Shown here: in pieces, positions 2,335 to 50,327 of the stretch
Numbering within the stretch: position 1 is the first letter of the stretch
Layout: each line of letters opens with the position of its first letter
Virus record (IMG/VR): IMGVR_UViG_3300032093_000042
Coordinates: 40,909 to 104,908 of that record
Source of the DNA: a virus
DNA: 64,000 bases
Strand: one strand, 5' to 3'
Made by a program: the position numbers and the translations under genes
The notes under the pieces: model-generated
What the model was told of the DNA's origin: nothing
Databases searched by the model: none
Seen by the model: only the letters and a program-made list of their open reading frames with translations

Positions 2335-4227
2335 ATGCATACATTTATTTACTCATCTCAAGACACTTATATAAATAATTCCGAAAAATTTATTAATAAA
2401 AATTTTGGATTGGATGAAGTGTTAGAAATATATGCTTCTAATAAAGGCACAACTACTGTATATACGGATCCAAATTGGCATCCGGCGCCTATCACAGCTT
2501 CATCGTATGGTAATGAGGGTTGGTTAGCATATACTACATCTTCTTTTTGTATATATTCAGGAAGCAAATGGTACGCATTTAGTTTAAATTCATCAATAAT
2601 ACCATTTACATCGTTTATATCTAACTTTAACGGCAGACTTTCAAATGTAACAACCAATCCTAAAAAGGAATTGTACATTACGGGATCGTCGAATTTTGCA
2701 TCGGGTTCTTTTAGCGGCAGTATTTATATAACTAGTTACTCACATTTTACAGGTTCTTGGTCAACCGGTAGTTTTTCGGGTTCAATTTTACAAGGGGCTA
2801 CATTTTCTAATCTAAGATTAGGATCTACAATCTATACTATAAGTCCACTTACATCGTCGTTAAGTGGTACCGGTAGTTACAAAAATTTAAAAGGAGAAAT
2901 ACTCGGTAAATCAAATACAGGTATCCCATGTACTCCTGGATTTTATCAACCAGTAACTAATTTTACATCAGGATCTTTTACCGGTTCTTTTAGTGGATCT
3001 AATTTTAAAGGACTCGTACAAACACTTACATCAAGTAATTTGTATTATGTGGATGTTGTAAATTTTAAAGGTTATTTCAAAGGAATGTATAGTGGTTCTT
3101 TTACAAGACCATCCACAGCTACATATTTGAATTATCCAGAATTTTCCAGAACTCTTATTAAGTTTGACATTAACGATTTAAGTCAATCCATATCTAATAA
3201 CAAAATTAGCGGTTCAAACATTAAATTTACTTTAAACTTAAAATCATGTGGATCTAGAAATTTACCGTTAAATTATAAAATTTATGCTTATCCCGTAAGT
3301 CAGAGTTGGGATAACGGTAACGGTAGATATGCAGACGAGGGATCCCAATTGGGTGTTAGTTGGAATTATAAAAATTACGACGGCAACGGTTTGTGGTATG
3401 GATCCGAATCTACTAACGCTTATCAACAAGTTGATTATTTATTGTCTGCGTCATATTCTAGTGCTAGCTTTGAAAATCAAGGAGGTACTTGGTTTTATAA
3501 AGTACCACCTTCTTATACAAACAAACCTAAATGGATATGTTCTTCAAATACGTATCCGTCATTGGTAAATCAAAGTTTGATTTGTAGTCAATCTTTTAAT
3601 TATGGTCAACAAAGTGACATATCCATGGATATTACACGAATCGTTAGATCGTGGTTGTGTGGTTGTGTACCAAATCAAGGTTTAATATTGATAAGTTCAT
3701 TGGAATTATCTACACCACCTTTACAACAAACCAATGGGTTATTACAATTTTTTAGTAGAGATACAAATACTATTTATTCTCCTTATATTGATGTAGCTTG
3801 GGATAATAGTGTTTATAATACGGGCAGTTTATCGCCTGTTACTGGATCTGTTCAAAATGTAATTACATTGAATTATTTAAAAGATACATATAAGGCGGGT
3901 AGTTTACCAAGAATATTTGTATTTGCTAGAGACAGATATCCATTGAAGAACTTTCAAAAATCATATCAACAAGTATCAATGGTAACTCCTAAATATTTGC
4001 CCACAAGTTCTTACTATATGGTAAAAGATGCTGAATCCGAGGAGGTTTTAATTGGATTTGATGAATATACAAAATTAAGTTGTGATCCAAATCAAGGTAA
4101 TTATTTTGATTTACAAACCACAGGATTGCCTCAAGAACGTTATTTGAAAATATTTATTAAGACAGAATATACGGACGGTATAGTAGACATTACGGACACA
4201 CAAAAGGTATTTAAAATAATAAGATAA
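2335..4227 (+). CDS. Virion structural protein with DNRLRE-like beta-sandwich domain and Ser/Gly-rich insertion
   Basis: DTYI..NFG, SRTLIKFD, W..GNG, DIT.IV.SW, NQGLIL pattern; within baseplate cluster; many SGS/TGS motifs. Confidence 0.55.
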   Translation: MHTFIYSSQDTYINNSEKFINKNFGLDEVLEIYASNKGTTTVYTDPNWHPAPITASSYGNEGWLAYTTSSFCIYSGSKWYAFSLNSSIIPFTSFISNFNGRLSNVTTNPKKELYITGSSNFASGSFSGSIYITSYSHFTGSWSTGSFSGSILQGATFSNLRLGSTIYTISPLTSSLSGTGSYKNLKGEILGKSNTGIPCTPGFYQPVTNFTSGSFTGSFSGSNFKGLVQTLTSSNLYYVDVVNFKGYFKGMYSGSFTRPSTATYLNYPEFSRTLIKFDINDLSQSISNNKISGSNIKFTLNLKSCGSRNLPLNYKIYAYPVSQSWDNGNGRYADEGSQLGVSWNYKNYDGNGLWYGSESTNAYQQVDYLLSASYSSASFENQGGTWFYKVPPSYTNKPKWICSSNTYPSLVNQSLICSQSFNYGQQSDISMDITRIVRSWLCGCVPNQGLILISSLELSTPPLQQTNGLLQFFSRDTNTIYSPYIDVAWDNSVYNTGSLSPVTGSVQNVITLNYLKDTYKAGSLPRIFVFARDRYPLKNFQKSYQQVSMVTPKYLPTSSYYMVKDAESEEVLIGFDEYTKLSCDPNQGNYFDLQTTGLPQERYLKIFIKTEYTDGIVDITDTQKVFKIIR

Positions 4228-4228
4228 T

Positions 4229-4705
4229 ATGGCAAACATTCCATTAAATTACGATGTTGCTACCGACGAAGTTTCACAATTTAAAGAATTTGGAACATTT
4301 AATAATAATGTGGATTCGTTTGGAAATATACAATTGGTTTATTTAGTAGCACAATCCGTACAAGCTAATTTAAATTATGTAAAAATTCCACTCAAAAAGT
4401 TTGAGTATAATCAGAATAAAATAATTGACGCAAATACTGTAAGTTTTTCTGAATTAACCACTGTTGTAGGAGAGGAAAAGAGAAATGTAGATGAAATATT
4501 ACAACAATATAATGTACTTTTAGAAGAAAACAGATTGTTAAATCAAACAGTCAATGAACTTGTTGAAAAATATGAAAATAGCGATGATAAATCGGTTATA
4601 AATGCTTTAAAAAATACAATAATAGATTTAAGAATAAAATTAGGTCAGGGAAATGTGCCTTCGGATTTTAGTGACGATTTTCCATTTTTACCTTTAATTT
4701 CATAA
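4229..4705 (+). CDS. Hypothetical coiled-coil baseplate-associated protein
   Basis: 158 aa ORF tightly packed in the operon, with a heptad-like central helix. Confidence 0.6.
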   Translation: MANIPLNYDVATDEVSQFKEFGTFNNNVDSFGNIQLVYLVAQSVQANLNYVKIPLKKFEYNQNKIIDANTVSFSELTTVVGEEKRNVDEILQQYNVLLEENRLLNQTVNELVEKYENSDDKSVINALKNTIIDLRIKLGQGNVPSDFSDDFPFLPLIS

Positions 4706-4706
4706 T

Positions 4707-7700
4707 ATGCCTTACGATTATTTAACAATAAACACCAATGATCTTTCGTATGGAATAGTAAGTGCATCTTACTTGCCAGAAAATTTGCAATCTTTATATG
4801 AACAAAAATTAGTAAATGATTCTGCTTTTTTTGGCGATTCAGGCGACGACATCATAGAATTTACAGTTTACAATAACAATCAAGAACCACTTCTATTTAA
4901 TAGAATTGTTCCTAAAGTTACTTATAGTGTTATAAATTCAACATATAAAGACATAAACAATGTTGAACAATCTTATCAAGTTGCAAATCCATTTACAAAT
5001 TATGCTTTAAATAATAACGACCTGTTATTACATACGCAATTTGATTTAAAAATTAACGAACTTAGTCCCGGATTATATTATGTTTTATATAATCCTATAC
5101 GGAATATAGCTGGAAATTCTACAAATAAACTGTTTATAAAAGAAATCTCTCCTAGCAGAACTGAATTGAGATTGTCTTTTGCGTTTAATAGAAATACAAA
5201 TTTAACTTCTAATTTAGACGCTATTAAAATTTCAGCATTTGCTGAGAAAAAGTTTTTGTTTTTACAAATAATCGATCAAATTGTACCGATAATAGATACG
5301 AACCCAATTTTTAATAATTTTAATATTGAACAAAATAATTTTAATTACTATAAAATTACACAATTACTCGGTTTTAAAACAACGGCGGAATTACAATCTT
5401 TTATTAATGATACGTATGTCGGTTATAATAAAATATTAAATCTATCAAACGAAGACGACGTAGTAATTGAAAGTATAAAATTTACAGGTGTGTCTGAACA
5501 ACTTAAGAATTTTGTTTACACATATAATTTGTCCGAATTTACATTTAATGAAATATTGTCTGCATTTGAACTTATTGTTAGAAAAGTGTGCCAAGACGCA
5601 ATTTTACAAAGAACGACTTTATTAAATACAGATTTACAAGAAACATTAAACGTATTTTTAAAAATTATTTATACAGATTGGTTGTTGCCAAAAACAAGCA
5701 ATCTTTTAGAAAAATACACCAATAAATTTTACGATTATTATAAAAACGCTTTAAATTTTGATAATGGAAATTTAGTTAAAATTTTAACACATACGAGTTA
5801 TTTTAACGAAGTTGACGGCGTTGCAAATATTCAAATAAAATTGGATGAACCTTTGCCGCTTGAATATAGTTTAAAAGATACATGTTGGATTTCAAACATT
5901 TCATTATCTCCGTTATACTTTAAAACAAATTTATATACAGCGCCGATATCTAGAAAAGTATTTTTGAACGGTACAAATTTTACGGTTGGAGTACCAAAAG
6001 TAACTCTTGCAAGTGAAACGTTTACGGAAGTGGACGATAATACCGTATTTTCGGCTGAATCTAAATTAAAAACAAAGGTCAATGATTTATTAATCAATTA
6101 TGACGATTTTTCAAATTTCATTAATTTTTCATCTGCCGAATTAAGAACAAAAATTGCAAAAAATAAGATTTTAAAGTATAATTCATATGTTGATTCAGCC
6201 AACAGTATCAAATCCAACGCAAATAACACTTCAAACTCATCTATATCTGCGTCGTATAATCAAGAATTAAAAACTGTAACTGAACAACAGATATCTTTAT
6301 TAAATAGTTTTGATGACTATGAATCATATTTGTTTTATTATACAGGAAGTATAGACGATAAAATTGATTTGGGTATAGAATTTGATAAAGTTAATTATAA
6401 CAGTTTATTTTATCAACTTCCACAATACATAAAAAATCAACAATCATATGAAGATTATGTTAAGTTTACTGCGATGGTAGGTCATTTTTTTGATAATATA
6501 TTGGTTTTTATTAAAAAATTTCCAAAATCATATCCTCTTGATTACAACGATAATAATCATTATCCAAAAAATTATATTGAAGAACTGTTAAATTCGTTTA
6601 ATTGGGACGTAACAAATTTTAAATTTAATACCAGTGATATAAATCAACTTTTATTTAATAATCAAGAAACAACTGGTAGTTTATCGTCATCATACTTTGA
6701 CTATGCAAAATCTATATTTAATAGAATTGCTAATAATTTAAATTACATTTACAAAACCAAAGGTACAGCCACTTCTTTTAATTTAATACGTACTATATTC
6801 GGTATAAATTCAGATTTAATTAATGTAACGGAATATAGTAGTCCTGATGTATTAGCTAATAAAAATGTATTTTATGATTTTGATGACGTTATATACGCTA
6901 CAAAATACGACACAGATCAATATGTAAAATTTAATTTTACAAGTAGTGAGTATACTTACAATTTTAAACAAGACAGTATTAGTGGCAGTTACACAGGAAG
7001 TTATACAGGCGATAATATTTATATAACCCGTTCTTTTATAGAAAATTTTACAGGAGTTTCCACCGTAGAAATGTCTTTTAGGTCCAATAATTGGAAAAAA
7101 TATAATTTTCAACAAAGAATTCCTTTAATTAAAAAAATAAGAAATAAAAATGTAGATTGGCAAATTTATTTAAGTAAAACTAAACAAAAAGAATCTGCCA
7201 AATTAATATTTGAGTTTACTCCTATTGAATCATTAACTACATCCAGTATATCAAGTATAGAATTACCTTATTTGAATGGCGACTTTTATACGTTTATGTT
7301 AAGAAAAGAACCAAATAGTAATATACGATTTGATTCTCTTCAATCAACATCTTCAAATACACAAGTTATAGGTTTTTATGGAAATTATAATGTTACTCAA
7401 TCAATTAACAATGTATATTATCCAAATTCAAACAAATTTACGCCACAAAATTATACATTGGCGGTAAATCAGTATTATGGTAGTTCTTTAAACTTTACCG
7501 ATAGAAAAACCAAGAGCATTTTATATGGACAAGATCAATATTTTTCATCAGGAAGCTATTATGTAGGAAATTATTCATCATCCATTCAATTTTATGGAAA
7601 TATAGATAAAATAAAAATACAAAAATATGCGTTGAACGATTCCGATTTTAATGAACATTCTTATAACTTAAATTCTATTTCTATACCGGATAAATCTCAG

Positions 7701-9203
7701 ACATATGAAAATTTATATTATTTATGGTCGTTTGATACACCTGTAAATTTGTACGGTACAAGTTATGCAATTGTTAACAATCAAAATACACGTTACAACA
7801 ACTATTTTTACGCTTATAATTTTAACAGAAATACAAAAACTAGAGGATATCCACATTGTGATACAATCTCAACTGATATTTTTCCTTATCAGTTTGAAAA
7901 ATTTAATATTAAACAAGCAATAAATTCAAATAAATACGGCCCTAATTATAAAGCAAATGCTAATATTAATAAAATAACACAAGAAATCAATTCAAATTTA
8001 GTACCATACGAATATTCTACATATACAACCGATATATTAGGTAGCGATTCAAATCTCGTAGGATATTATATCTCTCCATATAACTATTTAAACAATAAAA
8101 TTGAAGACTTTTTGGGCAAAGAAGGTATAAGTGATATTATCGGCGATCCTAAATATTTAACTTCTAGAAGTTATCCAGAATTAAAGAACAGACAACTTGA
8201 ATTTTCACAAACAAATCAAAAGTATGTATATCCACAAGAGTTTTATACAACTTATAAATTTTATATTGATTTTTCAATATTTGACTTTGTTAAAAAAATA
8301 AATCCTACACGCAGTGCGTTAAAAACAGGTCTATTATTAGAACCATCAATTTTCGAACGTGTTAAATTTAATTACAAAGACGTTGTATTTAATACAATTG
8401 ATTCAAACGATACAAGTAGTTTATTATATTACAATATAAATACTAGATTTACGTCGTCATTAATAAACACAAATGATACATCAAGTAATACCACAATTGA
8501 TATTAATCTAAATTATCTTCAAACTGACCACAATACCTTTAATTATTCAACGTTTGAAATAAAAGACATCGTCGATAATCGTGATTTTATTTTTGCTAAC
8601 AAAGGAAAGTATGTTTATGTAGATACAACTGGATTTAACATTAGAAATGTTGTTAATTTGCCCACTGAAGATCATTATCAAATGACCAATAATGTTTCAC
8701 ACTCATATATTACATTCACTTCTAGTTATAATTCAGTACAAACTCTAGGATCTGGTTCTGGTTTACCGTTTAATCAAATCACAGGCAGTCGTTCATTAAA
8801 AAATCTTTATAGTGGATCTTTGGGGAGTGGATATTCAAATAGACATTTGAGTAAGTTTGTAAAAGTTGGTACGAGGGTCAAAAAACAAGCTTTGTCTGGC
8901 TCTTTTTATACAAATAATAACGGCGTAACTACTTTAGTAGCTGGAAAAATAAAATACTATTCTTATACAAAAGGTAAAAATGATTATACTACAACTGTAA
9001 ATCGTAAAGGATTGCCTAACGGAAGTTCTCCTATTATTTCAATACCTGGATTTTTAAGCGTTGATATTGAAAGTGATAATTTTCCAATATATGGAACACT
9101 CACCGGATCGGCAGGATCGCCAAATAGTATATTTATACAGTCGCCGTTAACGTGTTCTACGTGTACGAGCGCTAGTTTGAATAATTACATTATGAATTTA
9201 TAA
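4707..9203 (+). CDS. Large baseplate wedge protein (gp7-like)
   Basis: 1498 aa; EISPSRTELRL, MVGHFFD and YKTKGT motifs (Y.KGT is typical of gp7/P2 gpI-like wedge proteins); baseplate context. Confidence 0.6.
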   Translation: MPYDYLTINTNDLSYGIVSASYLPENLQSLYEQKLVNDSAFFGDSGDDIIEFTVYNNNQEPLLFNRIVPKVTYSVINSTYKDINNVEQSYQVANPFTNYALNNNDLLLHTQFDLKINELSPGLYYVLYNPIRNIAGNSTNKLFIKEISPSRTELRLSFAFNRNTNLTSNLDAIKISAFAEKKFLFLQIIDQIVPIIDTNPIFNNFNIEQNNFNYYKITQLLGFKTTAELQSFINDTYVGYNKILNLSNEDDVVIESIKFTGVSEQLKNFVYTYNLSEFTFNEILSAFELIVRKVCQDAILQRTTLLNTDLQETLNVFLKIIYTDWLLPKTSNLLEKYTNKFYDYYKNALNFDNGNLVKILTHTSYFNEVDGVANIQIKLDEPLPLEYSLKDTCWISNISLSPLYFKTNLYTAPISRKVFLNGTNFTVGVPKVTLASETFTEVDDNTVFSAESKLKTKVNDLLINYDDFSNFINFSSAELRTKIAKNKILKYNSYVDSANSIKSNANNTSNSSISASYNQELKTVTEQQISLLNSFDDYESYLFYYTGSIDDKIDLGIEFDKVNYNSLFYQLPQYIKNQQSYEDYVKFTAMVGHFFDNILVFIKKFPKSYPLDYNDNNHYPKNYIEELLNSFNWDVTNFKFNTSDINQLLFNNQETTGSLSSSYFDYAKSIFNRIANNLNYIYKTKGTATSFNLIRTIFGINSDLINVTEYSSPDVLANKNVFYDFDDVIYATKYDTDQYVKFNFTSSEYTYNFKQDSISGSYTGSYTGDNIYITRSFIENFTGVSTVEMSFRSNNWKKYNFQQRIPLIKKIRNKNVDWQIYLSKTKQKESAKLIFEFTPIESLTTSSISSIELPYLNGDFYTFMLRKEPNSNIRFDSLQSTSSNTQVIGFYGNYNVTQSINNVYYPNSNKFTPQNYTLAVNQYYGSSLNFTDRKTKSILYGQDQYFSSGSYYVGNYSSSIQFYGNIDKIKIQKYALNDSDFNEHSYNLNSISIPDKSQTYENLYYLWSFDTPVNLYGTSYAIVNNQNTRYNNYFYAYNFNRNTKTRGYPHCDTISTDIFPYQFEKFNIKQAINSNKYGPNYKANANINKITQEINSNLVPYEYSTYTTDILGSDSNLVGYYISPYNYLNNKIEDFLGKEGISDIIGDPKYLTSRSYPELKNRQLEFSQTNQKYVYPQEFYTTYKFYIDFSIFDFVKKINPTRSALKTGLLLEPSIFERVKFNYKDVVFNTIDSNDTSSLLYYNINTRFTSSLINTNDTSSNTTIDINLNYLQTDHNTFNYSTFEIKDIVDNRDFIFANKGKYVYVDTTGFNIRNVVNLPTEDHYQMTNNVSHSYITFTSSYNSVQTLGSGSGLPFNQITGSRSLKNLYSGSLGSGYSNRHLSKFVKVGTRVKKQALSGSFYTNNNGVTTLVAGKIKYYSYTKGKNDYTTTVNRKGLPNGSSPIISIPGFLSVDIESDNFPIYGTLTGSAGSPNSIFIQSPLTCSTCTSASLNNYIMNL

Positions 9204-9897: not shown

Positions 9898-11007
9898 ATG
9901 ATATTTACTCCATTTTCATCAGACGATATCGTAACAGGCAGAATAAACCAAGTATCCTCGGGTATGTTTGGTACCGGCAGTTTAACGGTGGCACAATCAA
10001 CATTTGTAACAGCATCATCTCAAGCAAACGTATTGACTGGATCAAATCCATATGACGTTAAAAACGGACAGTATTATTTGGATGTATATAGCGGCGCCGA
10101 TCAATATTTTTCTATAGCTTACGGAGATTATTATAACTCAGGAAGCAGTCAATTTGACTGGACCGGCAATACTACTCAAGTCTTGACAAATGAAACAAAA
10201 ATTATATACACACAATACAAAAACACTCTTCTACAACCAGGAGATAATTTATTTAGTTTTGCGTCTAGTAGTATAAATACACCAATTGATAGTTCTGCTA
10301 TCTTTGTAGTAAATTTTACAGCCGATAAATTCCAAGATCAAGTAGATCCTGGTCAAATTCAATTAAACTTTAGTGGTGCAAATGGTCAATATAGTTATAT
10401 TGACGACTCTCAAGTTATAAATAAACAACAAAACGTTTATAACTTAATTTCGGGATCAATTATTAATGGAATTCCGACTCCATATACACATGGAGGTACG
10501 GTAACAGCATATTATCAGGGTACAGGTCTATTTTATCCAACGAACGGCGTTGTTATATTGAATGCCGTTGCTCTAGATAAAATTGTAGGCATTACAGATG
10601 CATCTCCACAAATTACAGCAACTGGGCGTCCTAGTAATCAAACGTCAACACAATTTAAGAGTTATTGGAGAGATTGGATACGTAAGTTTTTCTTAAGTTT
10701 ACGTAGATCAAATAAGAATATGGCAGTACGTAAAAGTGAATTTGTACCATCAACGAACTATTTTATAAGAGTTAAAAATAAAGAGTTTAACTACAGCAAC
10801 AATCCTACATTTGTTTCTAACGGAAATGATGGTAAAACTCAAGGTACTATAATTTATCCCGAATTAATAAGTAATCCACGTACCTATGTTACTACAATCG
10901 GATTGTACGATTCTAACAATGAATTATTAGCAGTTGGTAAATTAAGTAAGCCAACGCAAAAATCATTTGATAATGAATTGTTAATCAAGTGTCGTATAGA
11001 TTTTTAA
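9898..11007 (+). CDS. Baseplate structural protein
   Basis: EFNYSNNPTF and C-terminal TYVTTIGLYD..NELLAVGKLSKP motif, shared with 11796..14450. Confidence 0.6.
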   Translation: MIFTPFSSDDIVTGRINQVSSGMFGTGSLTVAQSTFVTASSQANVLTGSNPYDVKNGQYYLDVYSGADQYFSIAYGDYYNSGSSQFDWTGNTTQVLTNETKIIYTQYKNTLLQPGDNLFSFASSSINTPIDSSAIFVVNFTADKFQDQVDPGQIQLNFSGANGQYSYIDDSQVINKQQNVYNLISGSIINGIPTPYTHGGTVTAYYQGTGLFYPTNGVVILNAVALDKIVGITDASPQITATGRPSNQTSTQFKSYWRDWIRKFFLSLRRSNKNMAVRKSEFVPSTNYFIRVKNKEFNYSNNPTFVSNGNDGKTQGTIIYPELISNPRTYVTTIGLYDSNNELLAVGKLSKPTQKSFDNELLIKCRIDF

Positions 11008-11039: not shown

Positions 11040-11774
11040 ATGGTTAAATTTTTAAAAAATCAAGATATTCAGGTAACTACATTTGCGATTGCTAAAAATA
11101 AAATAGCTAATACCTTATTTTCCGATTTGTTATTAGCAAGCGATGGCACATATGATTTTCCGTTAATAATACCGGTTGAACAGTGTGTTTATAATTTTAA
11201 CACTTTAGCCACCGGTTCATTTGTTACCGTGGCGAGTTCATCGTGTGATGGTTCCACTATTAATACTAACGGATATTTAGCGTGTTCTCCCAATTTAAAC
11301 GAAAATAATCCAAATATGCAGTTTGGATTCAAACAGTCTGCCGATTCAGTTTTTTATCCAATTGGCACGCCAGAATATAATTCGGTAAATAATCCTATAA
11401 ATTCCGACGGTACATACCAAGTACAAGTATATAATACTATAAAAAATATGTATTATAATACTTACAATAATTCTTATCAGATATTCGGCTTTGATGGATT
11501 TAATAATTCCAACACTAAGTTGCAACTTGACGATAAGTTTATAAGTTATACTTTAAATGTTACACAAAGTGGAGATAGAATTAGACAAAAAAGTGTTGTT
11601 ATTAATAATCAAACAGGAGATATAGTTGCCGATATTAAAGATGACGGTTTAAATAATTTATATTTGTCAGGTTCGTATTTTGTTAATAACTATAATATAT
11701 ATTCAAATACAACCGATACTGTGACTAACACCGGTGAAAGTGGTTTGGGAAGATATTTGATAAACAATAACTAG
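11040..11774 (+). CDS. Baseplate structural protein (looks like the N-terminal part of a 9898-like paralogue)
   Basis: QDIQVTTF and GDRI..KDDGLNNLY motifs; same frame as 11796..14450 but separated from it by two TAG codons. Confidence 0.55.
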   Translation: MVKFLKNQDIQVTTFAIAKNKIANTLFSDLLLASDGTYDFPLIIPVEQCVYNFNTLATGSFVTVASSSCDGSTINTNGYLACSPNLNENNPNMQFGFKQSADSVFYPIGTPEYNSVNNPINSDGTYQVQVYNTIKNMYYNTYNNSYQIFGFDGFNNSNTKLQLDDKFISYTLNVTQSGDRIRQKSVVINNQTGDIVADIKDDGLNNLYLSGSYFVNNYNIYSNTTDTVTNTGESGLGRYLINNN

Positions 11775-11795: not shown

Positions 11796-14450
11796 ATGGC
11801 GAATTTAGACACAATTTATAATGAAAATTATGGTTCAACCGTAGTAACCAACGGTGATTTTATTGCTATAGGCAATCCACCGTGGAAAAAATACTCACAA
11901 TGTGAGGGATTTTCAAGAATAGGTCAAGTATTTTTAATTAAAAATGATCGGTTTAATTCAAAATATCCTGTTATCAAAACGTATACAAAAAAGTTTTCTA
12001 CTGAAAATGGTTATTTACCTACATATTATACTGAACAGAGTAGTAGTACATCATTTACAGCATCGTTTACAAAAGATGACGGTTACTACAACGATACATC
12101 CACATCATGTAGTTATTTAGTAATTGAAGATGATAATATACACACATATCAGTCAAATTACGGATCTTCAATTGACATGTGTGATTATTTCTTAGCGATA
12201 GGAGATACAGGTGTAACAGCTAGTTTTTATACAGGTTATACATCTTCGTTTGCTTCCGTAGATATTTATGTAATTAATTCTAATTATACATACGACACAT
12301 CTAACGGCATAATGTCTTCGTTTAATGATTGTGACTCGGAATCAAATAGTCAGTTAGACAATAGTCCGGTTTGTGTAATAACTGGATCTATATCCGAACA
12401 TTTCGGTAAAACCGTAAGTATTACTAATAATTATCTAGCGGTTGGTGCACCTAATTACAATTCAGGAAGAGGCTGTGTTTATATATACAAATATGTAGAC
12501 TCAGAATGTATATATCAACTGCAATCTACGGTGTCGTGTAGTTTAACTACATATCCATTACAATATAATTTCGGCAGTTCTATATGCTTAGATAAAGCTA
12601 CAGAAACTACACTGGTAGTAGGTAGTAATCAACTTTCACAATCAAACGTTTATATATTTATATCATCTTCAAATGGTTGGCAACTAAAACAAACGTTAAG
12701 TCAAAATACGAGTTCTAACTATTATAAATTAAACGACGCAAACTTTGATTTTGTTGCGAGTGGCAGTCAGATAAATTCTAGATATGGATATTCGGTATCA
12801 ATACACAAAAATTTACTAGCCGTAGGTGCACCAAATGATTTGATTTATTGGGAATATTCTGGATCAAATGTATTAAGACAACGTGGATCCGTTTATTTGT
12901 ATACCGATGATATTTGTAACAATTCGGAAATAAGTGGTAATTTATTAGTAAACTATACGTTGTTAACGAAAGTATACGGAGACTCATCCACATTTAAAGA
13001 TAATTTATTTGGATTTTCAGTATCCACACATAATAATAAAGTTTTGATCGGATCGCCAAAACCATATTTTCCATTTAGTTCTATTTTTATTTCAAGTTCC
13101 ATAGATTTTTATGATAATACATTCGATCAAACCGATTTCGGAGAATCTACGTATTGTGGCCAAACTTTATTATATTATGTAACTAATTCCAACGTAGTAC
13201 AACTGACTACAACTCCTATTTCAAAGCGAAAAGAATTAGGCAAACCGTACAATGCATTCGGATATTCTGTATCTGTGTCAGACGACAATTTAGTTATAGG
13301 AGCTCCCATACCACTTAACGACGATTTTCATCTACAAAGTTTGATAATAACCGAATCAGGCAGCGCTTCTCAACCACTTTATAAATTAACATCGTCTTAT
13401 CAAAGTGAAGACTGTTATATAACTTCTAGTTTTGTTTTAAATCAACTCGAAGAATGTATTAGTTGTGATTTTGGCGGTCCTATTAGTGGCGCTATTAGTG
13501 GCGCTATTGGTGGTGTATGTGACAATCTGATTATATTTGTTAACGAAGACGGAGATACTCAATACGTATCAAGTCAAATATTCGGCATGTCTTACATCTA
13601 TGACATGAAAGATTTACAAAAAAATCATCACGTTGGTAATGTGTTTTACAATAATAATAAAATTGTTATTAATAATACAGGTAGTATATTAAAGAATTTG
13701 ACACTTGATCCCACCGATTTTAACAATTCATATTTGTATATGGATTATCAAAGTCAAATGTCTCTACATGAAAAACAGTATATATGTACAATTGAACCCG
13801 GCGAATTTAACGTTTCAACAAATCCATCTGCAATAACATCTTCATACTTTGAATATGATATACTGAATAAAAACGTGTTTGATTTTAATAATCTTGATAT
13901 TATAATGAGATATCTAAATTATAGAATTACAAATAATTCTTCGGAGAAATGGTGGTTAAATTTTGTGAGCGGTGATGTAGATGAATCCGTGTTTAATTAT
14001 TACACATCTTCATTTACGAATTACGACGATAATCGTCTAACACAAACAATAAAAGATAAGTTCTGTGACGTCGATTTAGATATTAACAACGATGGTGTTA
14101 CAAATAATCAAGACGCAGAAATATTATGGAAATATTTTATAAATGATTTGACAATAAATAATTATCAGAATTATTTAAATCCACGAGCAAAACGTACAAA
14201 TTATGATAATATTGTTGGATTTTTAAATGAAAAAACGGGAAAATTTAATACAAAACTAATTAAACAAGAATTTTTTAATTTTAATTATAGTTCTTCAATT
14301 GATATAACAGGTTCATATCTAGCCCCATATATTACAACGGTTGGTTTATACAGCGATCAAGGAGAATTGGTCGCGGTTGCTAAATTAGCTCAACCAATTA
14401 AAAATACAAGTGAAATTCCAATTAATATTGTTGTTAAATGGGATACTTAA
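11796..14450 (+). CDS. Baseplate protein with FG-GAP beta-propeller repeats and a dockerin/EF-hand-like loop
   Basis: Repeated FG.SVS....LAVGAP....G.VY.Y units; DINNDGVTNNQDAEIL; C-terminal PYITTVGLY..ELVAVAKLAQPIK. Confidence 0.7.
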   Translation: MANLDTIYNENYGSTVVTNGDFIAIGNPPWKKYSQCEGFSRIGQVFLIKNDRFNSKYPVIKTYTKKFSTENGYLPTYYTEQSSSTSFTASFTKDDGYYNDTSTSCSYLVIEDDNIHTYQSNYGSSIDMCDYFLAIGDTGVTASFYTGYTSSFASVDIYVINSNYTYDTSNGIMSSFNDCDSESNSQLDNSPVCVITGSISEHFGKTVSITNNYLAVGAPNYNSGRGCVYIYKYVDSECIYQLQSTVSCSLTTYPLQYNFGSSICLDKATETTLVVGSNQLSQSNVYIFISSSNGWQLKQTLSQNTSSNYYKLNDANFDFVASGSQINSRYGYSVSIHKNLLAVGAPNDLIYWEYSGSNVLRQRGSVYLYTDDICNNSEISGNLLVNYTLLTKVYGDSSTFKDNLFGFSVSTHNNKVLIGSPKPYFPFSSIFISSSIDFYDNTFDQTDFGESTYCGQTLLYYVTNSNVVQLTTTPISKRKELGKPYNAFGYSVSVSDDNLVIGAPIPLNDDFHLQSLIITESGSASQPLYKLTSSYQSEDCYITSSFVLNQLEECISCDFGGPISGAISGAIGGVCDNLIIFVNEDGDTQYVSSQIFGMSYIYDMKDLQKNHHVGNVFYNNNKIVINNTGSILKNLTLDPTDFNNSYLYMDYQSQMSLHEKQYICTIEPGEFNVSTNPSAITSSYFEYDILNKNVFDFNNLDIIMRYLNYRITNNSSEKWWLNFVSGDVDESVFNYYTSSFTNYDDNRLTQTIKDKFCDVDLDINNDGVTNNQDAEILWKYFINDLTINNYQNYLNPRAKRTNYDNIVGFLNEKTGKFNTKLIKQEFFNFNYSSSIDITGSYLAPYITTVGLYSDQGELVAVAKLAQPIKNTSEIPINIVVKWDT

Positions 14451-22112: not shown

Positions 22113-22116
22113 TCAT

Positions 22117-35878: not shown

Positions 35879-37822
35879 ATGGCTGATCAATCATTTCAGG
35901 AATTAAGAAATCGTTCATTGTTTGCACGTTTGAAACGTTTGTTTTCAAACGATGTAATTGTTAGAAACATTGGCGGTAAAAAGTTAAAGGTAGTTGATAC
36001 CGATGAAATTCAATATGCCACGGATCGTAATAGTTTAAGAGATCGTTTTAATAGATTACGTACTACTTCATATAATCAATATACCAGAGATTTCAATCTA
36101 TCATATCAAAGCAGTCGTGTAGAACTATTTCGTGACTATGATACGATGGACATGGATCCAATTCTAGCATCTGCTTTGGATATCTATGCCGATGAATGTA
36201 CCACGCGAGATGAAATGGGGGAAATTTTACAAATTAAATCCAGTAATGATGAAATTAAAAACATACTTCATAACTTATTTTATGATATTCTAAATATTGA
36301 ATTTAATCTATGGAGTTGGACTCGGTGTATGGTTAAATATGGAGATTTTTATCTTCGTTTACATATTAGTCCGGAATACGGTGTATATATGGTTGAACCG
36401 TTAAGCACTTATTATGTCACCCGAGTTGAAAATGCACATTTGCAAAACAAAAATTTTGTAAAATTTCAAGTTAATCTTCCATATGGCAATAAAATGGAAG
36501 ATCTTGAAAATTATCAAATTGCACATTTTAGATTATTAAGTGATAGTAACTTCTTGCCATACGGTAAGAGTATGTTGGAAGGTGCTCGTCGGGTTTGGAA
36601 ACAATTGAGTTTGATGGAAGATGCAATGTTAATTCATCGTATCATGCGTGCTCCTGAAAAACGTATCTTCAAAGTTGATATCGGCAATATTCCTCCAAAT
36701 GAAGTTGACAATCATATGGAACGAATTATGACTCAGATGAAAAAGGTTCCATATGTAGATCAACAAACAGGCGATTACAATTTACGTTTCAATTTACAAA
36801 ACATGGTTGAAGATTTCTTCTTGCCAGTTCGTGGTAGTGATAGTGGTACAAGCATTGATAATTTGCCCGGATTGGAGTGGACAGGTACAGACGATATTGA
36901 ATATCTTCGCAATAAGATGATGGCCGCACTTAAGATTCCAAAAGCATTTTTAGGATACGATGAAAGTTTAAGTGGTAAAGCTACGTTAGCGGCTGAAGAT
37001 ATTCGTTTTGCTAGAACGATTCAACGTATACAGAGAATTATTGTAAGTGAATTAAATAAGATTGCCTTAATTCATTTATACAGTCAAGGATATCGCGATG
37101 AATCACTTGTTGATTTTACGTTAGAGTTGACCAATCCATCTACTATTTTTGAAAAAGAAAAAATAGATGTTTGGAAGAGTAAAGTTGAAGTATCTAAAGA
37201 CATGCAAGAAAATAAGTTTTTTAGCAAAAAGTGGATTTATGAAAACGTGTTTGGTTTAAGTGATCAAAACATGATAGAGTTACAAAAACAATTAGTCGAT
37301 GATGCTAAAGGTACTTATAGATTTAAGCAAATTGAAGACGAAGGTAATGATCCGGCGATTAAGTTTTTGCAATCAAGTGAAGAAAAAACGGATGGAGAAG
37401 GTGGAGGAGATGAACCTCCCTCTGACAGTGGATTACCCACAGGAGATTCCGATATAAATTCAGAACTATCAGGTAATAAAAAAGAAGAACCCCAAAAAGA
37501 ACCAACTAAAGAACCATCTAAAGAACCATCTAAAGAACCAACTGGAGCTGCGGGGTCAACTCCTCCAAAATTGTCCGAAAGAGATCAAAGTGGTAGAAAA
37601 GATGCTCGTAAATATCGGTTTGGAGAGGATCCCTTGGGTACGCTAGAAAATAACAGACGAAGTGATCTATCAGTAACACACAAATATAAAAACAAATCTC
37701 CATTATCATTGGAATCGTTGTCAGGACTTAATGATATGTTAAATACAGTTGATCAAGAAAAACAAATTTTAAGAGAGGGAAACGAAAAATCCTTTATGGA
37801 TGAAAGAAATATAAAAGAATAA
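35879..37822 (+). CDS. gp20: Portal protein
   Basis: LMEDAMLIHRIMRAPEKRIF.VD.GN.P, MVEDFFLP.RG, I..LPG, DIEY, ALKIP, EDIRF T4 gp20 motifs. Confidence 0.95.
   Translation: MADQSFQELRNRSLFARLKRLFSNDVIVRNIGGKKLKVVDTDEIQYATDRNSLRDRFNRLRTTSYNQYTRDFNLSYQSSRVELFRDYDTMDMDPILASALDIYADECTTRDEMGEILQIKSSNDEIKNILHNLFYDILNIEFNLWSWTRCMVKYGDFYLRLHISPEYGVYMVEPLSTYYVTRVENAHLQNKNFVKFQVNLPYGNKMEDLENYQIAHFRLLSDSNFLPYGKSMLEGARRVWKQLSLMEDAMLIHRIMRAPEKRIFKVDIGNIPPNEVDNHMERIMTQMKKVPYVDQQTGDYNLRFNLQNMVEDFFLPVRGSDSGTSIDNLPGLEWTGTDDIEYLRNKMMAALKIPKAFLGYDESLSGKATLAAEDIRFARTIQRIQRIIVSELNKIALIHLYSQGYRDESLVDFTLELTNPSTIFEKEKIDVWKSKVEVSKDMQENKFFSKKWIYENVFGLSDQNMIELQKQLVDDAKGTYRFKQIEDEGNDPAIKFLQSSEEKTDGEGGGDEPPSDSGLPTGDSDINSELSGNKKEEPQKEPTKEPSKEPSKEPTGAAGSTPPKLSERDQSGRKDARKYRFGEDPLGTLENNRRSDLSVTHKYKNKSPLSLESLSGLNDMLNTVDQEKQILREGNEKSFMDERNIKE
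37487..37543 (+). repeat. 12-bp tandem repeat encoding EP(Q/T/S)K in the portal C-terminal tail
   Basis: GAACC..AAA units, 4 full plus 1 partial. Confidence 0.8.
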
Positions 37823-39755: not shown

Positions 39756-40361
39756 ATGAAACAAGTATTAATAGACGTATTACCATTTGAGTTTAAAAAA
39801 TCGTCATTGAATGAATCTTATTCAGATGGAAAAATGGTAGTGACAGGCGTTCTTCAACGTGCTGATGCAAAAAATCAAAATGGTAGAGTATATCCATCCG
39901 AAATTTTAAAAAGAGAATCGGAGAAATACATGGACAATTTCGTAAAACAACGTCGTGCCATGGGTGAATTAGACCACCCCGAATCTTCCGTTGTAAATTT
40001 GAAAAACGTTAGTCATAATATTATTGACATGGGATGGGACGGTAAAGATTTGATGGGTACGGTTGAAATTTTACCAACTCCAAGTGGTAATATTTTGAAA
40101 GATCTTCTTAAGGCTGGTATTTTGTTGGGAATTAGTAGCCGGGGACTGGGATCTGTTAAAAAAGATATGAGAGAAAACGCAGATGTTGTACAAGACGATT
40201 TTGATTTAATAGCGTTTGATTTTGTTAGCAATCCAAGTACACAAGGAGCGTTTATGTATCCACAAGGAAAAATAAATGAAAGTGTCGATCAATCAAAAAC
40301 AATTATTAATCCTTATAGTAACGTTGAAAGAATTATCCACAACATTCTATCAGAACTATAA
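39756..40361 (+). CDS. gp21: Prohead core protease
   Basis: NQNGRVYP, GELDHP (catalytic His), TPSG, GISSRG (catalytic Ser), DFVSNPS. Confidence 0.95.
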   Translation: MKQVLIDVLPFEFKKSSLNESYSDGKMVVTGVLQRADAKNQNGRVYPSEILKRESEKYMDNFVKQRRAMGELDHPESSVVNLKNVSHNIIDMGWDGKDLMGTVEILPTPSGNILKDLLKAGILLGISSRGLGSVKKDMRENADVVQDDFDLIAFDFVSNPSTQGAFMYPQGKINESVDQSKTIINPYSNVERIIHNILSEL

Positions 40362-43147: not shown

Positions 43148-44974
43148 ATGAGTATGGATGTAAAGAGTCTATTGACAAATAATATGAATCCACAAGCCAA
43201 ATTGATGGCTGAAACCCGTGGATTACAAAACAAATGGGAAAAGACAGGCCTACTAGAAGGTTGTGCTGGTGTTGAAAAGGCACACATGTCTATCCTCTTG
43301 GAAAACCAAGCAAAACAATTGCTTGACGAAGCAACCACCACTGGTACTTCTACCAGTTCTGAACAATGGGCTGGCGTAGCTCTTCCATTGGTTCGTCGTG
43401 TGTTCGCTGAGATCGCTGCGAAGGAATTCGTAAGCGTTCAACCAATGAACCTACCATCAGGTCTAATTTTCTATTTAGACTTCAAGTATGGTACAACCGC
43501 TCCTGGTACCGACTTACGTAATTTGAATAACGGTAGTGCTAAAACCACACGTGCCGGTAAACAATTGAACGATAGTTTGTTCGGTGGTACAGGTAAGAAA
43601 TTGGGTTCTACCGACGACGCTGTTCGTGGTTTATATGGTCAAGGCGCATATGCTTATTCAGTTCGTCCAGTAAGTAGCTCTGCTATTACACTAACAAAAG
43701 TAGCAGGTACTACATCCACTGGTAATACAATTCAAACAGCTTCTTGGAATGACGTGCAATTTGCTAGCGAATTGAGTTCGTCCGTAGTAGCTAAGAAATT
43801 GTTCAAGGTAATCTTGAATCATGACGACAATACTTCCGGTATTGCTGCTAATGGATATGTATATAATGCAGATTTAAACGCAGCTCGTTCATTCAATTTA
43901 ATCTCAGGATCAACTACACCAACTACCTTACAAAGTAGTGGTCTCGTATTGAATACATACACTAAGGCAATCAATACAGGCAGTTTGGGAGATCCATTCT
44001 ATCAAACCGTATATATCGTATCAGCATCTAACAGTGCATTTGGCGGTGCGTCAAGCAAGGTTAAATTGATCTATAGTCTACAACCTACCGACAACCTACG
44101 TGGTGATTTTGAAGCTGGCAAGACTGCCGGTGAAGGATCCGGTACGGCCGGTAACGTTGCTACACAAAGCATTGATACCGATATCAGTATCCCAGAAGTT
44201 AACTTGGTACTAAACAGCGAACCTATCGTTGCTAAAACTCGTAAACTAAAGGCAGTCTGGACCCCAGAATTGGCTCAAGACTTGAATGCTTACCACTCTA
44301 TCGATGCAGAAGCAGAACTTACTGCTCTATTGAGTGAATATGTAAGTATGGAAATTGATCTTGAAATCCTAGATATGTTGAACGAATCCGTTCAAGGTAT
44401 CACAACCGAAGCTTGGTCCGCCCAAATCGGCGTTGAGTTCAGCAAGTCAATCAACGCAACAACCGGTGAAGCAGTCTTCACACGTAATGCAAACAGTTCA
44501 CCAAACCGTACTGCTTACGTAAAGAGCACCTGGTTCCAAACTCTTGGTAACAAGATTCAAAAGGTGTCTAACACAATCCAAAAATTGACCCTCCGTGGTG
44601 GTGCTAACTTCTTGGTCGTAAGTCCAGACGTAGCAACAATCTTGGAATCAATCCCAGGATATGTTGTAAACACTGACGGCGATCAAGCTAAGTTCGCAAT
44701 GGGCGTAAGCCGTGTTGGTAGCTTCGCAAGTCGCTTCCAAGTTTACAAGAACCCATACATGACCGATAACGTAGTATTGGTTGGTTTCCGCGGAAACAAC
44801 TTCCTAGAAACCGGTGCTGTATATGCTCCTTATATCCCACTAATCCAAACTCCATTGGTCTATGATCCAGTGAACTTCACACCACGTAGAGGCGTAATGA
44901 CCCGCTACGCTAAGAAGGTAGTGCGCCCAGAGTTCTATGGAAAAGTATTAATCGGTGATCTCGATACCGTATAA
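43148..44974 (+). CDS. gp23: Major capsid protein
   Basis: LLENQ, LPLVRR, VQPM..PSGLIF, KTRKLKA.WTPELAQDL.AYH.IDAEAEL, YAPYIPL, F.P..GVMTRY. Confidence 0.97.
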   Translation: MSMDVKSLLTNNMNPQAKLMAETRGLQNKWEKTGLLEGCAGVEKAHMSILLENQAKQLLDEATTTGTSTSSEQWAGVALPLVRRVFAEIAAKEFVSVQPMNLPSGLIFYLDFKYGTTAPGTDLRNLNNGSAKTTRAGKQLNDSLFGGTGKKLGSTDDAVRGLYGQGAYAYSVRPVSSSAITLTKVAGTTSTGNTIQTASWNDVQFASELSSSVVAKKLFKVILNHDDNTSGIAANGYVYNADLNAARSFNLISGSTTPTTLQSSGLVLNTYTKAINTGSLGDPFYQTVYIVSASNSAFGGASSKVKLIYSLQPTDNLRGDFEAGKTAGEGSGTAGNVATQSIDTDISIPEVNLVLNSEPIVAKTRKLKAVWTPELAQDLNAYHSIDAEAELTALLSEYVSMEIDLEILDMLNESVQGITTEAWSAQIGVEFSKSINATTGEAVFTRNANSSPNRTAYVKSTWFQTLGNKIQKVSNTIQKLTLRGGANFLVVSPDVATILESIPGYVVNTDGDQAKFAMGVSRVGSFASRFQVYKNPYMTDNVVLVGFRGNNFLETGAVYAPYIPLIQTPLVYDPVNFTPRRGVMTRYAKKVVRPEFYGKVLIGDLDTV

Positions 44975-44998: not shown

Positions 44999-45027
44999 AA
45001 AAACCCCAACGAAAGTTGGGGTTTTTT
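44999..45027. terminator. Bidirectional rho-independent terminator between convergent MCP and mom-like genes
   Basis: AAAAACCCCAAC-GAAA-GTTGGGGTTTTTT. Confidence 0.9.
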
Positions 45028-45799
45028 ATTCAAAAAATTGGTTATTATTTTGTACAATTATTTCTTGAACTTCTTCTTTGAATGAAGCATTTTTGGGGTA
45101 ATCAAGAACTTTATGTTTTAGTGATTTGACAAGTTTCTTGTTCTCTATTTTGTTGCTAATAAATTTGATATAACGATACTTGCCACTTTCACGTTTACGC
45201 CAAAATGTTCTACCTATACGTTCTTTAAGTTTATCTACACTGTGTGTTTTCCACTTAGCATATACACTTCTACTGTGTATCCATTTATAATTTGGAGGTC
45301 CATCTAAACTAACACTATAGTTGGGCATTAGTGCTACATCAACATAATTGTCTCCTTGAAAAAGAAAGCCCGTAGCTTGGTATATTGTACCTTTATGTCC
45401 TACTTCACTATCAGCATAACTTAAAATACATTTTATGTGGGGGTGTTCTTTATTGAGTAATCTAAAACTTTCAGCTATACAATAACTTTCTATATTCTTG
45501 CCGTAACCGTCTGCAATCCACAGTCTTGTTAATTCTAACACATTATTGTTAACAAGTAGTGGTGATATACTGGTACTGGCGTTTCTACCCACGGCATTTC
45601 CATATACCAATACACCTATTAATCTTTCGTTAAATCCACCAAAGAATGTACTCTCAATATATTCTTTGTAATAAACTCCATAAGCTACTGTACATAGACT
45701 CCATTTGTGAGTATAATGATTCTTTTCAATAAGTGTTTTTGCAACATTCTTATTGATGCTTTTGAGGTAAATTAATGTGGGATCAAAATACTCGGACAT
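45026..45799 (-). CDS. mom: Mom-like (GNAT fold) DNA adenine modification protein
   Basis: I.KNHY, LIGV.VYG, LELTRLW, KNIES.CI, ILSYAD...GH.GTIYQATGF motifs of the Mu Mom family. Confidence 0.8.
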   Translation of the reverse strand: MSEYFDPTLIYLKSINKNVAKTLIEKNHYTHKWSLCTVAYGVYYKEYIESTFFGGFNERLIGVLVYGNAVGRNASTSISPLLVNNNVLELTRLWIADGYGKNIESYCIAESFRLLNKEHPHIKCILSYADSEVGHKGTIYQATGFLFQGDNYVDVALMPNYSVSLDGPPNYKWIHSRSVYAKWKTHSVDKLKERIGRTFWRKRESGKYRYIKFISNKIENKKLVKSLKHKVLDYPKNASFKEEVQEIIVQNNNQFFE

Positions 45800-48975: not shown

Positions 48976-49028
48976 AAATATGATATGTAAATTAACAAAT
49001 TATAAACTGTATATTTTTGTTGTTTAGA

Positions 49029-49036
49029 TATTTATA
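49029..49036 (+). promoter_or_regulatory. Putative late promoter box TATTTATA
   Basis: 4 nt upstream of ATG 49041. Confidence 0.6.
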
Positions 49037-49040
49037 ATTA

Positions 49041-50327
49041 ATGAGTGCTAATTTGGACCAAGACAGAGTGAGGTGGCCTGGGAGTGGAAGTGCTGTTAAT
49101 AGCGGCAGTGTTCCATTCGGCTATTATCTAGACGAAACCTGTACATCAGGCGAGACTACATTTGAAAATGATTGTAGTAGCAGCGCGATGTGGGCAGCAA
49201 AACGTCTTGGATACCCGATTGTTGACATAGAAATGATTGATGTCAATTTTTATGCTTGTTTTGAAGAAGCTACGTTAGAATATAATCGTGTAATTAATGA
49301 ATTTAATATCGTAAATAACTTAGTATCATTACAAGGTTTACCACAAAGTAAGTACGATAATTTAACCGGGTTGGCAATGAAAAGTACAGGGTTGCCTTAT
49401 GTTGTACAACTAAGCAAACAATATGGCGCAGAAGCATTGGTCGGTGGAGAATATGAAGTAAAAAGAAATTATATTAGTATTACAGGCAGTAGCAATCCGG
49501 CTAATACAAATCAAGTCTATGACTTAAATGCTTTAATAGGCGAAAATATAGAACATCTTACTGGATCTAGAATAGAAGTGAAAAGAGTGTTTCATTACAG
49601 ACCACCAGCTATAGCACGTATTTATGATCCATTTAGTATGACAGGTATGAGCTACAGCAACGTACTTACCGAAATGGGATTTAGCGCATATAGTCCAGCA
49701 ACACAATTCTTAATGACTCCTATATTTGAGGATTTGGAACGTGTACAAGCAATTGAATTCAACGATATGGTTAGAAAAAGTGCTTATAGCTTTGAAATAT
49801 TAGGAAACAACAAATTAAGAATATTTCCTATACCAACCGACAGTTTTAAAATTTATATAGATTATATCGTTGAAAGTGAACGTGATATAACAAACTTTTA
49901 CAGCGGATCTCGTTACGAATATATTAGTGATCCAAGCGATGTGCCTTACGAAAATTGTACTTACTGCAAAATTAATCAGCCTGGCAAACAATGGATTAAA
50001 AAATATTTTCTAGCTTTATGTAAAGAAACACTCGGTCGTATTCTTCAAAAATATAGTACCGTTCCAATTCCGGGTGGTGAAGTTACATTAGACGGTGCCG
50101 AATTAAGATCCGAAGCTAAAGAAGAAAAAGACACTTTGCTTGAAAAATTAAGAGATATGTTGGAAAAAACCTTGAGGGTTACACAATTGGAAAACAAGGG
50201 CAAAGAAGGTGAAGAAATGCAAAAGATGTTAGCTAGAGTACCACTACACATTTATATAGGGGTTTGGGCGTTTTTATTAATATATATTAATATATGGACA
50301 AACATCAATGTGGTATCTGCGGTTTAA
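49041..50327 (+). CDS. gp13: Neck protein, gp13-like
   Basis: RLGYPIVDIE..CFEEA, WIKKY.LAL.KE.LG..KY..IPGGEVTLDG motifs; C-terminus runs past P..IYIG into the endonuclease insertion. Confidence 0.8.
   Translation: MSANLDQDRVRWPGSGSAVNSGSVPFGYYLDETCTSGETTFENDCSSSAMWAAKRLGYPIVDIEMIDVNFYACFEEATLEYNRVINEFNIVNNLVSLQGLPQSKYDNLTGLAMKSTGLPYVVQLSKQYGAEALVGGEYEVKRNYISITGSSNPANTNQVYDLNALIGENIEHLTGSRIEVKRVFHYRPPAIARIYDPFSMTGMSYSNVLTEMGFSAYSPATQFLMTPIFEDLERVQAIEFNDMVRKSAYSFEILGNNKLRIFPIPTDSFKIYIDYIVESERDITNFYSGSRYEYISDPSDVPYENCTYCKINQPGKQWIKKYFLALCKETLGRILQKYSTVPIPGGEVTLDGAELRSEAKEEKDTLLEKLRDMLEKTLRVTQLENKGKEGEEMQKMLARVPLHIYIGVWAFLLIYINIWTNINVVSAV

Follow-up and report, generated by a model that had tools for sequence, protein, structure and literature searches.

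We analysed a stretch of 64,000 nucleotides from an uncultured virus (IMG/VR record IMGVR_UViG_3300032093_000042, positions 40,909 to 104,908; hereafter the window), which forms the last 64 kb of a 104.9 kb viral contig that is ~36% complete according to CheckV. The window has a G+C content of ~30%, carries nearly every gene on the + strand, and encodes a T4-type capsid protein, a portal, a prohead protease, a 1314-amino-acid tail sheath and many tail and baseplate proteins. At 48% capsid identity, Microcystis phage Mel-JY01 and the Flavobacterium 'immuto' phages are the closest named phages, and Rhodothermus phage RM378 is a more distant relative. Here we address the tripeptide [ST][GAS]S, which recurs in the virion proteins of this phage, together with a transferase/methyltransferase cassette that lies just upstream of the sheath gene and a pair of collagen-like fibre genes towards the end of the window. 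A first-pass annotation had seen in the tripeptide a candidate glycosylation sequon of the outer virion proteins.

A serine-rich tripeptide in the virion proteins

The number of motif sites expected in each protein was derived from 1000 composition shuffles, with further shuffles confined to blocks of 40, 20 and 10 residues. The tripeptide was enriched 3-5-fold over the shuffled sequences (z 6-8) in five proteins, all encoded on the + strand. These are a 630-amino-acid baseplate-region protein of no known family (open reading frame (ORF) 2335-4227; 22 sites versus 5.2 expected, z 7.2), in which tandem hydrophobic-S-G-S runs occupy residues 116-150 and 212-222; a 1498-amino-acid tail/baseplate protein (ORF 4707-9203; 22 versus 4.8, z 8.1, and still z 6.2 with 10-residue block shuffles); an 884-amino-acid protein with FG-GAP repeats (ORF 11796-14450; Pfam FG-GAP_2, E 9e-22; 19 versus 4.5, z 6.7); the tail sheath (ORF 26063-30007; 24 versus 6.9, z 6.5); and a head-tail adaptor-like protein (ORF 49041-50327; phrog_211, E 2e-11; 6 versus 0.8, z 6.0). 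Enrichment was weaker in a 369-amino-acid protein (ORF 9898-11007, + strand; 6 versus 1.8, z 3.3), in ORF 11040-11774 (3 versus 0.7) and in the T4-type major capsid protein (ORF 43148-44974, + strand; Pfam Gp23, E 2e-73; 7 versus 2.5, z 2.9). The dense occurrence that had been claimed for the baseplate proteins, sheath, capsid and neck protein was thus borne out by the shuffled controls, most clearly in the five strongest carriers. Pfam and PHROGs searches of the motif-rich proteins yielded almost no annotation.

The sites fall within lineage-specific parts of these proteins. Twenty-three of the 24 sheath sites precede the Pfam sheath core (residues 1032-1304) and lie in a large lineage-specific N-terminal part, in agreement with an earlier manual count of more than 20 sites and a core nearly free of them. 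The seven sites of the capsid protein lie in its N-terminal and insertion part, where QTASW, LSSSV, ISGST and VSASN, pointed out in the first-pass annotation, map to residues 197-292, ahead of the main Gp23 match. The motif was also scarce where it had been said to be scarce: we found none in the portal (ORF 35879-37822) or the protease (ORF 39756-40361), and 3 versus 1.4 expected in the SbcCD-like protein (ORF 16283-19468).

The excess persisted when residues were shuffled within 40-, 20- and 10-residue blocks, so that local composition is not the explanation; whole-protein and block shuffles together rule out a composition artefact. Among common tripeptides the most over-represented were SGS (31 versus 4.5) and TGS (23 versus 3.5). 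Serine codons within the motif are a mixture of AGY and TCN, which places the signal at the level of the protein rather than the DNA and rules out a DNA-level repeat.

Strict position rules were evident once a hydrophobic residue was required on each side of [ST][GAS]S (hereafter the flanked motif), as the reported hydrophobic flanks and exact residue class had led one to expect. Position 1 is occupied by S or T only, position 2 by G (47 versus 2.8 expected) in preference to S and by S in preference to A, and position 3 by S only, with I, L, F or Y preferred at -1 and Y, F, I or L at +3. The flanked motif is also directional, T-x-S occurring 32 times versus 2 for S-x-T, which rules out a non-directional clustering of small residues. 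In 40 homologs of the ORF 2335 protein the positions of the sites are conserved and substitutions stay within the class (SGS/SSS, TGS/SGS/SSS, TSS/TAS/SAS); serine and threonine conservation is 0.81 within motifs versus 0.66 outside them. Many of these homologs measure 555 instead of 630 amino acids, and eight such alignment rows lose the columns of sites 139-179 as a block, as if a strand-pair module had been gained or lost.

BLAST among the motif carriers detected no similarity except between two fibre paralogs and in weak repeat-level matches, which argues against a common homologous domain behind the carriers and upholds the earlier remark that unrelated proteins share the motif. Over-representation against composition and position-specific residue rules are both present for [ST][GAS]S; judged by these sequence properties, the motif is a selected, sharply defined unit common to proteins without BLAST-detectable mutual similarity.

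The densest carriers of all lie outside positions 2335-50327; they are two fibre genes just upstream of the window (contig positions 32426-33481 and 33500-34666) and the two collagen-like ORFs (53258 and 60978) described below. The upstream fibre genes contain the densest tandem (hydrophobic-S-G-S)n arrays, and the densest carriers as a group are fibre-like, with a spacing peak of 4 residues between sites. A few kb upstream of both tandem-motif fibre genes, at contig positions 19901-27632, a weak GT2-like ORF and FkbM methyltransferase domains occur together in a second cluster. ORF 55599-58445, a 948-amino-acid Thr-rich protein, contains no [ST][GAS]S at all versus 7.4 expected, and 8 copies of the reversed tripeptide. 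It is built of ~100-residue repeats with hydrophobic-S-G-T-G-x-G-Q, and its G+C of ~0.40 versus 0.30 elsewhere may mean a different origin. We considered avoidance of a sequon as the reason for the zero count and rejected it, since the different repeat (hydrophobic-S-G-T-G) explains the count more simply.

AlphaFold2 (AF2) models of the ORF 2335 protein (40 homologs) and of the N-terminal 1030 residues of the sheath (42 orthologs) were weak overall, with mean pLDDT of 48 and 53. The former was confident only at residues 100-250, the motif-dense part, where the tandem units lie within very long predicted strands (E114-151, E176-200 and E215-230) and 10 of 13 confidently modelled sites are in beta-strands. 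In the sheath, the blocks with pLDDT of at least 65 contain 13 sites. All four of the SGS/TGS sites in this set lie inside strands; six of the 13 sit at strand edges and three, centred on Ala or Ser, in helices. No site was found in a free loop in the confident regions of either model. No significant Foldseek match was obtained for the ORF 2335 model, nor did searching PDB sequences with the fibre or the immuto tail spike turn up a solved structure. This spike (MW353176, 97614-100775) is likewise Ser-rich and contains hydrophobic-[ST]-[GAS]-S-hydrophobic units, also in tandem arrays. It is an example of the fibrous repeats in phage tail fibres and spikes; its units match the motif of the window and are absent from the tail proteins of T4 and A511.

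By the geometry of a strand, the bulky residue and the small central residue would alternate along one face, with both hydroxyls on the opposite face. We regard hydrophobic-[ST]-[G>S>A]-S-hydrophobic as more probably a lineage-specific building element of beta-rich virion proteins, namely fibres, baseplate proteins, the outer domains of the sheath, the capsid insertion and the adaptor, which in tandem would give period-4 (hydrophobic-S-G-S)n stretches predicted to form long beta-strands. One could also imagine that the hydroxyl face is itself a binding surface, with Ser/Thr-x-Ser arrays contacting host polysaccharide or neighbouring subunits, much as Thr-x-Thr arrays form the binding surfaces of beta-solenoid ice-binding proteins. 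The tandem period-4 arrays in long predicted strands and the concentration of the motif in fibres, baseplate proteins and outer sheath domains are compatible with this idea, which is purely an analogy and leaves the isolated capsid and adaptor sites unexplained; we consider it highly improbable.

The transferase cassette upstream of the sheath gene

Three genes on the + strand form the cassette that precedes the sheath gene. The first (ORF 19473-22112) encodes a GT1-type glycosyltransferase fused to two FkbM methyltransferase domains (Pfam Glycos_transf_1, and Methyltransf_21 in two stretches), and the second (ORF 22093-23832) a GT2-type glycosyltransferase (Pfam Glycos_transf_2, E 3e-24). The third (ORF 23837-25972) encodes a protein of 711 amino acids with a GT4-like N-terminal half followed, at residues 334-704, by a domain of the TibC/Aah type, the BAHT family of protein glycosyltransferases. 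Among relatives that carry this TibC-like domain, nearly all have a homolog of the first gene upstream of the sheath gene, and homologs of the second were found in the closer relatives only.

The TibC homology is full-length. Residues 334-704 align with residues 13-386 of the 406 of E. coli TibC (phmmer, E 7e-64 to 2e-64; PDB 4rap/4rb4), spanning both the N-terminal beta-barrel domain and the GT9-like catalytic domain, and the Pfam matches TibC_1st (E 3.7e-8) and Glyco_transf_9 (E 3e-7) are both above their cut-offs. The features that define BAHT enzymes are a catalytic Asp-110, Thr-226, Lys-230, Trp-305, Arg-286 and the iron-finger cysteines (PMC4358343). The catalytic aspartate corresponds to D433, within an 'LGD' motif that is invariant in the 17 phage homologs covering that region. 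Thr-226 and Lys-230 correspond to T548 and K552, and Trp-305 to the Trp of G-x-SG-x-S-W; these residues are invariant in the phage homologs as well. All four iron-finger cysteines (Cys 339, 342, 358 and 370) align and are invariant, with metal binding as a prediction only, and the tip of the TibC beta-hairpin thumb, F265-V266, aligns with L-Y. The position of Arg-286 is Ala in ORF 23837 and varies among the phage homologs, and Pro-300, a position of stereoselectivity, is replaced by Ser, as in Aah, and by Ser or Gly among the phage homologs. These two differences make the donor sugar uncertain. No ADP-heptose synthesis genes were found among the ORFs annotated in the 105 kb, a span that represents ~36% of the genome and in which not every ORF was scanned.

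By this homology, the product of ORF 23837-25972 is a genuine protein O-glycosyltransferase of the TibC/Aah type, joined to a GT4-like domain. The three-gene cassette is probably active in glycosylation and methylation. Such enzymes are rare among known phages: a TibC-like protein is encoded by 4 of 50,697 phage records, Mel-JY01 among them, in a collection biased towards cultured phages. Among the papers searched, none describes a phage TibC-type enzyme, the matches to 'TibC' together with 'phage' being unrelated.

What is known of the bacterial enzymes makes the idea of a glycosylation sequon attractive. BAHT enzymes modify serines at the loop start of strand-loop-strand elements, TibC does so by drawing a strand out into a loop (PMC4358343), and the heptosylated peptides of its substrate TibA are rich in hydrophobic-S-G-G-S (PMC3835316). 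In the E. coli pairs TibC-TibA and Aah-AIDA-I, serines of beta-rich repetitive proteins are modified in the cytoplasm, and a gene for a repetitive Ser-rich protein often lies close to that of the enzyme (PMC4358343). ORF 23837 resembles these enzymes in its barrel, catalytic Asp, Thr/Lys/Trp and four cysteines. Unlike them, it is encoded by a phage, carries a GT4-like fusion partner and shares its cassette with other transferases and FkbM methyltransferases. We found no autotransporter beside the TibC gene, whose neighbours are transferases and the tail sheath; in this phage locus, the likely substrates would be collagen-like fibres and not a beta-helix passenger.

Phage-encoded transferases have been proposed to O-glycosylate the phage's own structural proteins in mycobacteriophage virions, where the acceptors are Ser/Thr-rich C-terminal extensions. 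The mycobacteriophage system uses other enzyme families, and the candidate acceptors in our phage are internal pentapeptide or collagen-like repeats.

Motif, transferase and collagen-like fibres across relatives

If the motif were the sequon of the TibC-type enzyme, the two should occur together, as the first-pass annotation had anticipated for motif enrichment and transferase genes across related phages. We found that this association fails in both directions. Genome-wide, the flanked motif was over-represented in phages with TibC (the query contig, 81 versus 10.5 expected; Mel-JY01, 44 versus 13.5) and also in phages without it (immuto, 72 versus 12; RM378, 26 versus 9). Among the other TibC-less phages, S-PM2 was marginal (23 versus 16), and A511 (8 versus 6.4) and T4 (5 versus 8.4) showed no enrichment, which rules out a general property of myovirus tails. 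These totals indicate that the motif is specific to a clade rather than dependent on TibC.

The sheath proteins told the same story. We compared 80 sheath orthologs from viral contigs; the contigs compared here and below are mutually related and mostly fragments, and no phylogenetic correction was applied to the p-values. The TibC-less group consisted of 13 orthologs with at least 7 kb of upstream sequence available and no TibC anywhere in the contig, one of these contigs being 304 kb long and 89% complete. The tripeptide was enriched 3.09-fold in the 41 orthologs with an adjacent TibC gene versus 2.86-fold in the 13 without (p 0.10), and in a size-matched subgroup the flanked motif was enriched 9.0-fold versus 7.4-fold (p 0.24). 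The aligned sites 377, 443, 470, 899, 955 and 964 are kept in the TibC-less rows. Conversely, TibC-plus loci of other lineages showed no enrichment in their non-collagen ORFs (0.96-fold). Motif and TibC thus show a double dissociation, and as far as these comparisons reach, the dispersed motif belongs to the phage's clade independently of TibC. Selection would keep the motif with or without a TibC-type enzyme, so that it was not shaped as TibC's sequon. More generally, motif enrichment together with the presence of a transferase is insufficient for calling a sequon, and here it was the co-occurrence control that reversed the assignment.

What does travel with TibC is a different kind of sequence. 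Near the end of the window, two + strand genes encode collagen-like fibres: ORF 53258-55540 with 128 G-X-Y triplets (GSS 55, GTS 34, GTT 10; Pfam Collagen PF01391, E 6e-42), and ORF 60978-63998 with 243 triplets (Pfam Collagen, E 2e-94), which is cut off where the window and the contig end. Both have long uninterrupted Gly-X-Y repeats with S or T at X and, in over 75% of triplets, S at Y; proline is absent within the runs, and with it the proline-rich X/Y positions that stabilise collagen. Counting runs of at least eight G-X-Y triplets made of S and T, we found 1095 amino acids of such sequence in the query contig and 597 in Mel-JY01, ~2.5 kb from its TibC gene, and none in immuto, RM378, T4, S-PM2 or A511. 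In the Mel-JY01 record (PP395634.1), long G-S/T-S collagen-like frames lie on the + strand at 41-2176, where minus-strand hypothetical CDSs are annotated at 1-651 and 739-2298; the annotation probably picked the wrong strand there.

The association extended to other genomes. The TibC-plus genome LR756501 contains 888 matches to the pattern and the TibC-minus genome LR756508 none, and overall collagen-like sequence was present in 3 of 4 whole TibC-plus genomes versus 0 of 6 TibC-minus ones. For contigs with sheath orthologs the counts were 7/11 TibC-plus versus 0/13 TibC-minus (Fisher p 0.00095). In a reverse test, viral contigs were chosen solely by the DNA pattern (GGN WSN WSN)x8; 23 of the 72 (12/44 and 11/28) encode TibC-like proteins (E 1e-44 to 1e-133), as do 6 of 11 when only contigs of at least 90% completeness are counted, to be set against the base rate of 4 in 50,697 phage records. 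At five loci the TibC-like gene lies 1.6-4.2 kb from a collagen-like run.

Our preferred interpretation, which we hold with modest confidence, is that the dispersed motif is a lineage-specific structural element and that the cassette's likelier target is the collagen-like fibres. The statistics and conservation of the motif, the homology of the enzyme and both patterns of co-occurrence are shown directly; what the motif does structurally and which protein is the acceptor we infer. Since TibC travels with proline-free (G-S/T-S)n fibre genes, the cassette most likely acts on those fibres; it would O-glycosylate their Ser/Thr residues in the cytoplasm, before assembly, and the collagen-like fibre of ORF 53258-55540 is a probable substrate. 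By analogy with Thr-rich collagens and Bacillus BclA, the fibre glycans would stabilise or coat the proline-free triple helix. The BclA protein of Bacillus anthracis has glycosylated GPT repeats, and worm cuticle collagen is glycosylated on Thr. These proteins share with the phage fibres Ser/Thr-rich Gly-X-Y repeats, and theirs are O-glycosylated and belong to a filament on a particle surface, a modification that in the phage is predicted; unlike theirs, the phage repeats are proline-free and mostly G-S-S and G-T-S. The original proposal is supported as regards the motif itself and a real TibC/Aah-type transferase beside the sheath gene; no support was found for joining them as sequon and enzyme: TibC-less relatives keep the motif, and collagen-like sequence co-varies with the enzyme instead.

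Several observations weigh against this interpretation. The TibC-plus genome LR756504 has no collagen pattern. At six loci, all in a separate phage group, a standalone TibC-like gene of ~381 amino acids lies two genes downstream of a giant motif-bearing fibre protein, with no collagen-like run in the fragments. The giant fibre of this group, 1700-2350 amino acids long, has 8-12 flanked sites versus ~1.3 expected, and by eye its C terminus looks similar to a chaperone domain of tail fibres. The hydrophobic-S-G-G-S of TibA is close to the dispersed motif, and since TibC pulls a strand into a loop (PMC4358343), location in a strand does not bar the motif from being an acceptor. A simple amphipathic strand offers no obvious reason for the strict Ser, never Thr, at position 3, nor for the strong directionality of the motif; this is a specificity of the degree expected of an enzyme recognition site. 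Finally, every relative we examined carries some GT1/GT2 genes, with no transferase-free relative among them, so that another transferase might glycosylate the dispersed motif.

It is possible, then, that the motif is older than the enzyme and that TibC-plus cassettes nevertheless use hydrophobic-[ST]-G-S-hydrophobic as an acceptor, in which case sheath, baseplate and fibre proteins would be O-glycosylated besides or instead of the collagen-like fibres. Genes for BAHT enzymes usually lie beside those of their substrates, and the enzymes recognise strand-loop-strand elements with the serine at the loop start (PMC4358343), and the TibC gene lies directly upstream of the motif-rich sheath gene in the phage's lineage and beside motif-rich ORFs in Mel-JY01; the six loci with the giant fibre and the TibA glycopeptides (PMC3835316) point the same way. 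Against this stand the equal motif density and aligned sites in the absence of TibC, the TibC-plus loci of other lineages that lack the motif, and the fact that the statistically supported companion of TibC is collagen-like sequence. The residue preferences also differ: collagen runs have mostly S before Gly and S or T after it, whereas the dispersed motif has S or T before its centre and strictly S after, and with these opposite preferences the two are not obviously one sequon. On balance we regard such double use of the enzyme as unlikely.

A further alternative is that the motif is the recognition site of another enzyme present throughout the clade, either a GT1/GT2 transferase or a host enzyme, or the site of another modification of serine. 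The sequon-like sharpness and directionality of the motif, its class-preserving substitutions and its presence in unrelated proteins would all be accounted for; the motif is clade-specific, all clade members checked have glycosyltransferase clusters, and the tandem-motif fibre genes have the second FkbM/GT2-like cluster a short way upstream. We found no specific enzyme family that co-varies with the motif, however, and the glycosyltransferase genes could equally serve the modification of DNA or of the host surface. The sites, moreover, lie in regular secondary structure in confident regions of the models. We therefore think this alternative rather improbable. In a broader form, the motif would be a portable O-modification sequon read by a clade-wide phage enzyme, which would not be TibC or would be TibC in some members only; the whole virion surface would then be coated with sugar, and the TibC cassette would add a second, fibre-specific layer. 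To this picture we give limited credence. We return to the motif as a structural element of the virion and the collagen-like fibres as the likelier target of the cassette; a virion-directed glycosylation system probably exists in this phage.

Neighbouring genes and implications for phage virions

Several other genes of the window are of note in their own right. The large terminase is divided between two ORFs (33058-33903 and 34662-35855, both with terminase PHROG matches), and between them lies a 252-amino-acid ORF (33907-34665) that matches no Pfam family. ORF 45026-45799, among the few minus-strand genes, encodes a Mom-family protein (Pfam PF25680, E 1e-42), which suggests modification of DNA bases. 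An HNH/homing-endonuclease-like ORF (50646-51188) is located between the adaptor-like gene and a tail-sheath-stabiliser-like gene (51784-53253; Pfam T4-gp15_tss). From 52000 to 64000 the G+C content climbs from ~0.30 to 0.44; much of the increase comes from the collagen-like genes, which are GGN-rich, but G+C is raised in ORFs 55599 and 58964 too.

To our knowledge, there are very few systems in which the proteins of phage particles are known to be glycosylated, and such glycosylation matters for host recognition, particle stability and the immune recognition of phages. These results describe a conserved peptide element common to unrelated virion proteins across a widespread clade of large environmental phages, and point to an adhesin-type protein glycosyltransferase family that has been recruited by phages and is rare in cultured ones. 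The strong link between TibC and proline-free collagen-like fibres is testable, and two cultured relatives, Mel-JY01 with TibC and immuto without it, make the question of which virion proteins carry sugars accessible to mass spectrometry.

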